Sequence record: PV469800.1
Direction: 5' to 3' (one strand)
Length of the DNA: 64,000 bases
From: Escherichia phage HMD-P10
The notes beneath the pieces are model-generated. The model saw only the letters and a program-made list of their open reading frames with translations. It did no database searches and was not told where the DNA came from. This document shows, piece by piece, positions 28,643 to 28,899 of this stretch; the stretch's first letter is position 1; each line of letters starts with the position of its first letter. Made by a program: the position numbers and the translations under genes.

Positions 28643-28899
28643 TTTTACTCCCTCTAAAATCATTAACCTCATACATTACTGCAAAAAATTATAAAAAGCA
28701 AGTTGACAATATACTTGACAAGGTGTTAATCTTTGCGAAGTGGGTTTTTACTTAAAAGGTTACTTAACAGTTTAACTATACAGATACTTTAAAACTCTTA
28801 AAAGATTATTTAATAGCTTTTAAAAAGCTTTAAAGTATAACGTATAGAATACGTTAAGATAAAAGATTAAAACTTAATAGTTACTTAAAAGAGGCTTAC

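Follow-up and report, generated by a model that had tools for sequence, protein, structure and literature searches.

A conserved, probable divergent promoter and leader region between the DNA polymerase and gp97 genes of Felix O1-type phages

The strong early promoters of virulent coliphages, such as T7 A1-A3 and those of T5, are sigma-70 promoters in which an extended -10 element is combined with an upstream A-tract. Short repeated words are also found in the non-coding DNA of such phages: in T7, short-repeat arrays comprise the CCTAAAG words that flank the terminal repeat and the AT-rich stretch upstream of promoter A1, their role being unsettled. Similarly, promoters form part of replication origins, the T7 primary origin comprising the tandem promoters 1.1A/1.1B and an AT-rich region, and T4 oriF and oriG each comprising a middle promoter and an unwinding element. 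Here we describe the 257 bp intergenic gap (28643-28899) separating the leftward DNA polymerase gene from the rightward replication operon, headed by a gp97-like gene, in Escherichia phage HMD-P10 (PV469800.1), of which a stretch of 64,000 nt, termed the window, was analysed. The gap is most likely a real, strongly selected divergent promoter and leader region, and we put at roughly 60% the probability that it works as a bidirectional sigma-70 promoter region with a leader, from which two of the phage's four transcription blocks are started.

The gap equals that between genes 96 and 97 of Felix O1, and Felix O1 positions 63429-63779 are 99.1% identical to it. In the Felix O1 genome paper, divergent early promoters were assumed to lie between these two genes, ORF 96 was found by reverse transcription PCR to be transcribed within 5 min, with ORFs 96-99 peaking at 25 min, and the temporal regulation of transcription was stated as not known (Whichard et al. 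2010, PMC3185647). Promoters are not mentioned in the paper on wV8, while the GenBank record of phage ASO1B (MZ726792) annotates two low-stringency promoter matches, one on the plus strand at window positions 28703-28730 and one on the minus strand at 28801-28775. The existence of a promoter region is therefore assumed in the literature, and its parts are first described here; new relative to PMC3185647 are a three-copy double-TTGACA module, the footprint of a leftward promoter, the box words, a hairpin and the extreme conservation of the region.

Felix O1-type phages are widely used in the typing, biocontrol and therapy of Salmonella and E. coli, and the analysis gives testable promoter coordinates for both replication arms. 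The region is unusual in its invariant second -35-like box, in belonging to a promoter class of three members, in its word-packed leader and in a conservation that goes beyond what two promoters need.

Conservation and the two candidate promoters

Among 29 unique Felixounavirus sequences, 15 of the 257 gap positions (6%) vary, compared with 10-23 of each 33 third codon positions (30-70%) in the polymerase gene of the same sequences. Of 258 phage records, 152 carry the gap at 99% identity or higher, against mostly 90-95% for the surrounding 3 kb, and its mean identity across the three genera Felixounavirus, Suspvirus and Mooglevirus is 89%. When 21 unique Felixounavirus sequences were aligned, diversity was 0.002-0.013 across 28600-29000, whereas the polymerase gene showed 0.03-0.06 and the downstream genes 0.05-0.23. 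Silent sites of gp97 behave in the same way at its beginning, with two of 33 third positions varying in codons 1-33 as opposed to 9-11 of 33 later, indicating that nucleotide-level constraint reaches approximately 100 nt into the gene (28900-29000). As judged from these alignments, the gap is under very strong purifying selection at nearly every base; such constraint is unusual in phage DNA outside genes. Of 252 phage records, 168 match the other divergent gap of these genomes, between the counterparts of Felix O1 genes 40 and 41, at 99% identity or more, and on these figures no non-coding DNA in the genus is better conserved than the two divergent gaps; both may be useful as anchors when these phages are engineered, in diagnostic PCR and for expression cassettes.

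The left part of the gap contains two TTGACA boxes on the plus strand, at 28703-28708 and 28715-28720, exactly where a preceding reading of the sequence alone (the sequence-only reading) had placed them. An A-tract (28693-28697) directly precedes the region of box 1, which matches the -35 consensus at 6/6 positions, and a candidate extended -10, TG-T-TAATCT (28724-28732), lies at 18-nt spacing from this box, giving a predicted start at 28738-28740. In 49 unique gap sequences from the three genera, both boxes, the TG and hexamer positions T1, A2 and T6 never change, and the only variation in TG-N-TA(A/G)TCT is at N and at base three of the hexamer. Between the boxes (28710-28713) the sequence is by contrast hypervariable, with 12 spacer variants among the 49 sequences, and 28711-28713 account for three of the 15 variable gap positions within Felixounavirus. 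The most economical reading of this pattern is a rightward sigma-70 promoter, with box 1 as its probable -35 and TG-N-TAATCT as its extended -10.

Box 2, part of the sequence CTTGACAAGGTG, falls inside the spacer of this candidate promoter. The idea that the tandem boxes represent two ordinary promoters does not hold, a plausible -10 at 17-18 nt existing for the first box alone; box 2 was accordingly rejected as an ordinary -35, there being no -10-like hexamer 16-18 nt downstream of it in the first two copies of the module described below. Elsewhere in the genome CTTGACAAGGTG occurs as a lone -35, once on the minus strand at 25936 and once at 43991, where TAGGCT follows after 18 nt. In the more distant Kolesnikvirus, which comprises Erwinia phages, the equivalent place holds a single CTTGACA-N17-TACATT, the CTTGACA of which aligns with box 2. 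This box may be a second contact for the polymerase or the site of a regulator.

A scan of the window and of the remainder of a related genome (phage SME50, locus L104) found three copies of the module TTGACA-N6/7-TTGACA per genome and no more, all of them on the plus strand and in homologous contexts; on comparative grounds, the double TTGACA is clearly not a product of chance. Copy 1 is that in the gap between the polymerase gene and gp97. Copy 2 (63641-63849, plus strand, with boxes at 63661 and 63674) precedes an early-gene cluster and has its own hairpin and box-bearing leader, the latter being less conserved, mostly at 90-95%. Copy 3 lies outside the window on the plus strand of L104, in the other divergent gap (11625-11874, with the module at 11724), and heads the tRNA, terminase and structural block. 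A promoter class of three members is thereby defined, heading two of the four transcription blocks plus one early-gene cluster. The order of elements is common to all three: A-tract, TTGACAA, 5-6 bases, CTTGACA, TG and TAnnnT, the hexamers (TAATCT, TAACTT and TAGGCT) lying 17-18 nt from box 1. The -10 forms of the paralogues are TGG-TAACTT and TG-TAGGCT, and in each copy the hexamer is followed, at about +12 to +22, by CT(T)AAAAGG. The perfect TTGACA, the TG one base before TAnnnT, the 17-18-nt spacer and the A-tract are shared with T7 A1-A3 and the T5 early promoters; these differ from the present class, in which all three copies have a second invariant TTGACA in the spacer, 4-6 nt from the -10, and in which the -10 is weak (3/6).

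A candidate promoter for the polymerase gene lies back to back with the rightward element, one base separating its -35 from box 1. This -35, TTGCTT (28701 to 28696, minus strand), matches the consensus at 3/6 positions and is part of a block, AAAAAGCAAGTTGACAA (28693-28709), that is invariant across Felixounavirus, Suspvirus and Mooglevirus; the candidate -10, TAATGT followed by AT (28678 to 28673), is 17 nt away. Among the unique sequences from outside Kolesnikvirus, 48 of 49 have TA(A/G)(T/G)GT, exactly 17 nt from TTGCTT every time, and the spacer occurs as eight different sequences of this one length. The fixed distance, the conserved hexamers and the free spacer form the pattern expected of a real promoter. 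Transcription from it is predicted to begin near 28667, some 25 nt ahead of the polymerase ATG at 28642. The minus-strand TATAAT at 28688-28693 was rejected as a polymerase -10, as Felixounavirus alone possesses it and no -35 lies at a usable distance. The minus-strand site annotated in ASO1B (MZ726792), TTAAGA-N15-TATAGT at 28775-28801, overlaps AACTATACAG, which is invariant in the three genera, and includes one CTTAAAAG box (28797-28804); the annotated site may represent an additional leftward promoter, located upstream of the first.

The AT-rich leader, its words and its palindromes

Downstream of the rightward candidate promoter is a leader of approximately 160 nt (28739-28899, plus strand), which has a homologue in the leader at the other divergent gap. 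The sequence-only reading was right to call the gap AT-rich, GC content being 21% at 28750-28899 compared with about 39% overall. The leader contains words of an 8-bp type, namely CTTAAAAG, CTTAACAG, CTTAATAG and CTTTAAAG. The pattern CTNWWARG was found ten times on the two strands of 28740-28899, against 0.73 expected, and none of 2000 local dinucleotide-preserving shuffles reached ten. Genome-wide, CTTAAAAG is the commonest 8-mer of non-coding DNA and is enriched there about five-fold, 17 of its 33 copies being in the approximately 10% of the sequence that is non-coding. Word pairs with a period of 11-12 bp start at 28751/28763, 28817/28828 and 28873/28884. The first, CTTAAAAG-gtta-CTTAACAG (28751-28770, plus strand), has a 12-bp period; the third, CTTAATAG-tta-CTTAAAAG (28873-28894, plus strand), has an 11-bp period and runs into the ribosome-binding site AAGAGG (28889-28894), while the paralogous gap ends in CTTATAAGAGGC. 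Word pairs with an 11-13-bp period are kept in the Kolesnikvirus leader despite its otherwise diverged sequence, gp97 being 44% identical there.

Similar pairs also fill the paralogous leaders, some terminator loops and a gene-free field of 1.5 kb. This field lies at a convergent junction in SME50 (L104 2180-3700) and starts approximately 1.1 kb past the right end of the window; it consists almost wholly of words with a 10-11-bp period (CTGTTAAG, CTTGTTAG, CTATAAAG and CTTAAAAG), the vocabulary of the gap leader. It may hold a terminal repeat, a packaging signal or an origin, and resembles the CCTAAAG arrays beside the T7 terminal repeat. The record of UAB_Phi87 begins in the tRNA cluster and gives nothing on the physical genome ends. 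The likeness to T7 extends to CTnAAAG-type words, a period of about 11-14 bp, a location in gene-free DNA and a phage with a T7-like replisome; the differences are that here the words fill the leaders of three promoters too, and that their consensus is CTTAAAAG/CTGTTAAG. Given the mixed orientation of the words in the other gap and their abundance in the gene-free field, recognition in DNA by a protein is favoured.

Two palindromes had been reported within the leader. The AACGTAT inverted repeat does exist, but its 7-nt arms are at 28839-28855 rather than 28837-28853; in full it reads TAACGTAT-AGA-ATACGTTA (28838-28856), with seven pairs kept in 13/13 representative sequences. Two of the pairs have changed on both sides in different lineages, from A-T to T-A and from C-G to T-A, with pairing kept, so the symmetry appears to have been selected. 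In the genome ACGTAT-N3-ATACGT is a single copy, on which ground a regulon of ACGTAT operators was rejected. The near-palindrome AGCTTTTAAAAAGCT is present as well, at 28815-28829 rather than 28811-28825, and is not kept as a DNA palindrome: all of its changes are one-sided and break the symmetry in eight of the 13 representative sequences, and its RNA hairpin is no better than those of shuffles (z=-0.42). A better description is that of two abutting words, and the box CTTTAAAG (28828-28835) comes next.

Distant look-alikes of this near-palindrome, reported at 21577, 21841 and 23112, exist in part. The first and last are copies of ACCTTTTAAAAAGGT, at 21571-21585 and 23106-23120, inside copies of a repeat unit of about 135 bp; the third is the core CTTTTAAAAAG alone (21843-21853), in the context GACCTTTTAAAAAGGAG. 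A search for the motif RSCTTTTAAAAAGSY did give three matches against 0.01 expected, of which two independent occurrences remain once the shared repeat unit is considered. The likeness between AGCTTTTAAAAAGCT and ACCTTTTAAAAAGGT is thus not that of a common operator but of a shared vocabulary of short AT-rich words, the distant sites belonging to one repeat unit. All the features listed in the sequence-only reading therefore exist, several with coordinates 1-6 bases off; its proposal of an operator or switch for both arms named the right kind of element and one genuine inverted repeat, while the second palindrome and the look-alikes fell away.

Proposed function and its alternatives

Host RNA polymerase with sigma-70 would engage the A-tract and box 1 as the rightward -35 and, across the 18-nt spacer, the extended -10 at 28724-28732. 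Transcription would then start near 28739 and yield an AU-rich leader of approximately 160 nt, ending in AAGAGG and preceding gp97, the dNMP kinase and the primase/helicase. From the back-to-back leftward promoter, consisting of TTGCTT, the 17-nt spacer and TAATGT, the polymerase mRNA would start near 28667. Box 2 and the phased CTTAAAAG-type word pairs are most likely binding sites for a putative regulatory protein, which might set the timing or strength of the double-TTGACA promoter class; the abundance of words in the leader and the presence of another -35-like box both hint at such a regulator. The ACGTAT hairpin would be a conserved leader element, acting in RNA or in DNA.

Several observations weigh against this reading. 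The rightward -10 matches the consensus at just 3/6 positions, and a sigma-70 consensus scan did not flag the promoter, promoter-like sites being found at chance level (4 versus 2.7 +/- 1.8). No obvious sigma-70 promoter and no regulatory sites were reported in the 96/97 gap of Felix O1 (PMC3185647), and the literature as searched holds no transcriptome or start-site study of this phage group. The ASO1B record (MZ726792) reads TTGACA-N16-GTTAAT at the rightward site instead, and its placement of the leftward promoter (28801 to 28775) gives converging rather than back-to-back starts. An invariant second TTGACA within a promoter spacer is not accounted for by ordinary promoter function, and 257 near-invariant bp together with about 100 nt of gp97 silent sites exceed the need of two promoters and a few sites. 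The phasing of the words is no more than suggestive, as the seven sites that fit an 11.05-bp phase were picked before testing and were equalled by 93 of 5000 random sets.

The conserved leader might instead act as RNA, the hairpin and the CUUAAAAG words being sites at which the replication-gene mRNA is processed or stabilised or its translation controlled, as at the RNase III sites of early T7 mRNA and the targets of RegA/RegB in T4. Compensatory changes are the classic sign of a selected RNA helix, the hairpin lies 35-55 nt upstream of the start codon in all three paralogous leaders, the last box continues into the ribosome-binding site, and the hairpin and ribosome-binding site of copy 2 recur before many small early genes. 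In addition, the one-sided changes within 28815-28829 are G-U compatible on plus-strand RNA. However, the 28838-28856 hairpin is weak as RNA (-3.5 to -5.8 kcal/mol), and consensus folds of eight and 13 sequences support the ACGTAT helix alone, that of 13 sequences over the leader and the start of the coding sequence reaching a weak -16 kcal/mol across 281 columns. Single sequences gave a marginal fold z-score of -1.94 for the plus strand of the leader and +1.5, worse than shuffles, for the minus strand. A permissive Rfam search of 20.5-29.5 kb gave no match at E<=1, and at the gathering score the window and 28.5 kb of related genome contained nothing but tRNAs, all outside the window. On these models the leader is not a structured RNA beyond the small hairpin, and the presence of the words in either orientation, and within the 1.5-kb gene-free field where transcription units converge, points to DNA; a role as RNA is somewhat unlikely. 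Selection on a palindrome acting in DNA could alternatively reflect a repressor: the two palindromes, 28815-28829 and 28838-28856, would be operators for a dimeric helix-turn-helix protein, such as the XRE-type HTH_3 protein encoded at 20468-20797, that switches both units. The likeness to the Cro/CI-type operators of lambda OR, which lie between divergent promoters, is that here too inverted repeats are found in the divergent control region of a phage encoding an HTH_3 protein, and the retention of the ACGTAT dyad through two double changes is what co-evolution with a dimeric protein would give, while the core CTTTTAAAAAG occurs four times in the window. Yet the other three CTTTTAAAAAG sites are one repeat family, the DNA symmetry of AGCTTTTAAAAAGCT is lost in most of the representative sequences, as described above, and nothing ties the XRE-type protein to the palindromes. 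Measured from the candidate rightward start, the two palindromes are 75-120 nt downstream, and neither overlaps a promoter core. The ACGTAT repeat, approximately 100 nt downstream of that start and 170 bp upstream of the proposed leftward start, is unlike a classical promoter-blocking operator because it is a single copy outside both promoter cores, whereas lambda-type regions have repeated, related operators; such a switch is very doubtful. The boxes themselves might be no -35 elements at all, but a direct-repeat site with a 12-13-bp period to which an activator or repressor binds in tandem. Their minus-strand sequence, TTGTCAA-N5-TTGTCAA, is similar to the Pho box (CTGTCAT-N4-CTGTCAY), and in Felixounavirus a perfect minus-strand TATAAT follows 9-10 nt downstream of the repeat, a geometry resembling that of pho promoters. 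The pairing of boxes in all three module copies, and their invariance around variable inter-box bases, would also fit such a site. Nevertheless the period is 12, 12 and 13 bp rather than a fixed 11 bp, Suspvirus and Mooglevirus lack the minus-strand TATAAT, TTGACA is exactly the sigma-70 -35 consensus and other promoters of ordinary appearance in the genome are headed by a lone CTTGACAAGGTG box, making this proposal highly improbable.

More than a promoter, the gap might also, or primarily, be a transcription-primed replication origin, in which a strong promoter fires into the 21% GC unwinding region and either the transcript or the opened DNA allows the replisome to load. The candidate promoter is directly upstream of about 160 bp of this composition, and the gap is situated between genes for a T7-like polymerase and a primase/helicase; in both respects it is like the T7 primary origin and T4 oriF/oriG, in which a promoter is followed by a very AT-rich stretch. 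Conservation of nearly every base, reaching into the silent sites of gp97, fits a DNA-level element better than a plain promoter, and the phased, repeated words resemble iteron arrays, although they are 8 bp long compared with 17-22 bp for typical iterons. The cumulative GC skew is lowest at about 28-28.7 kb, where the coding strand also switches; skew tracks gene orientation in all four blocks, and it was set aside as evidence on an origin. Sites for DnaA, IHF, Fis and CRP, 13-mers and T7-type primase sites (GGGTC, TGGTC or GTGTC, a T7 preference that may not be that of this primase) were all absent from 28600-28930. Moreover, there is no phage RNA polymerase here to match that of T7, and a homologous, equally conserved module and leader occur at the other divergent gap, far from replication genes. 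An origin is decidedly unlikely; were the gap one, it would be the first located in the Ounavirinae subfamily. A broader proposal, which builds on the divergent promoter region, is that double-TTGACA promoters and phased CTTAAAAG/CTGTTAAG words constitute an Ounavirinae-wide regulatory code. This code would be read by a putative phage factor or phage-modified host factor that coats the three leaders and the 1.5-kb field, timing early and middle transcription and, at the gap between polymerase and primase genes, coupling transcription to the start of replication. Although unlikely as it stands, it would, if true, explain how a phage without an RNA polymerase or known sigma modifier orders its gene expression.

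Gene layout and neighbouring repeats

A 3-kb stretch around the gap matches 257 phage records, the best being Escherichia phage JN01 at 98.2%, and nearly all of these are Felix O1/wV8-type myophages of the genus Felixounavirus; the window is thus part of a Felixounavirus (Felix O1/wV8-like) genome. The T7-like, family A DNA polymerase gene (25943-28642, minus strand) matches PHROG family phrog_17 (E=1.8e-112). Its ATG at 28642 is preceded by a ribosome-binding site, GAGGGAG (28649-28655), and the equivalent ATG is the start chosen by annotators in most of the related records fetched. The longest open reading frame (ORF) would begin ten codons further upstream, at ATG 28672, but 28643-28672 contains 1-nt insertions or deletions in close relatives and in other genera, and this start is probably wrong. 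The sequence-only reading correctly recognised a divergent gap between the leftward polymerase block and a rightward block of gp97, dNMP kinase and primase/helicase, but took its left end from the longest ORF, giving 227 bp (28673-28899); with the polymerase start at 28642, the gap proper spans 28643-28899. No ORF of at least 20 amino acids (aa) is wholly inside it, the three listed ORFs merely running in from the flanks. In Kolesnikvirus, a gene for an HNH endonuclease is inserted between the divergent gap and the polymerase gene (L030 1468-1944, Erwinia phage Rouille; also in L031), and a leftward promoter there would drive the endonuclease first.

The gp97-like gene (28900-29322, plus strand, 140 aa), named after its Felix O1 counterpart, belongs to phrog_4039, a family of unknown function; it gave no Pfam or PDB match, a PDB sequence search returning chance-level matches alone. 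It is followed on the plus strand by a gene for a 270-aa 'minor tail protein', the dNMP kinase gene, a small ORF and a T7-gp4-like primase/helicase gene. The 'minor tail protein' (29324-30136) is so named in many records and in PHROGs, yet lies inside the replication operon; it has no Pfam match and its gene is the most variable nearby, with a diversity of up to 0.23. The label looks doubtful.

The repeat unit of about 135 bp that contains the distant look-alikes is present in five copies at 21361-21881 and 22928-23316. Each consists of a C/A-rich, G-poor tract of NNACC pentamers (60-80 nt), CT(G)TTTAAAGACCTTTTAAAAAGG and the hairpin GTCTCA-N12-TGAGAC with AACTACCC; the unit had no Rfam match. 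The copies flank two minus-strand ORFs, 21882-22322 and 22325-22927, which have no Pfam match and are absent from JN01, where a single unit is found. It is speculation that the C-rich plus strand of the unit might be a Rho-loading site acting against antisense transcription. A different leader module, consisting of a hairpin, GGGAGGGATAACCTCCCC, and then a ribosome-binding site, precedes at least eight small ORFs at 58800-63900, and looks like a processing or stabilising element common to small early genes.

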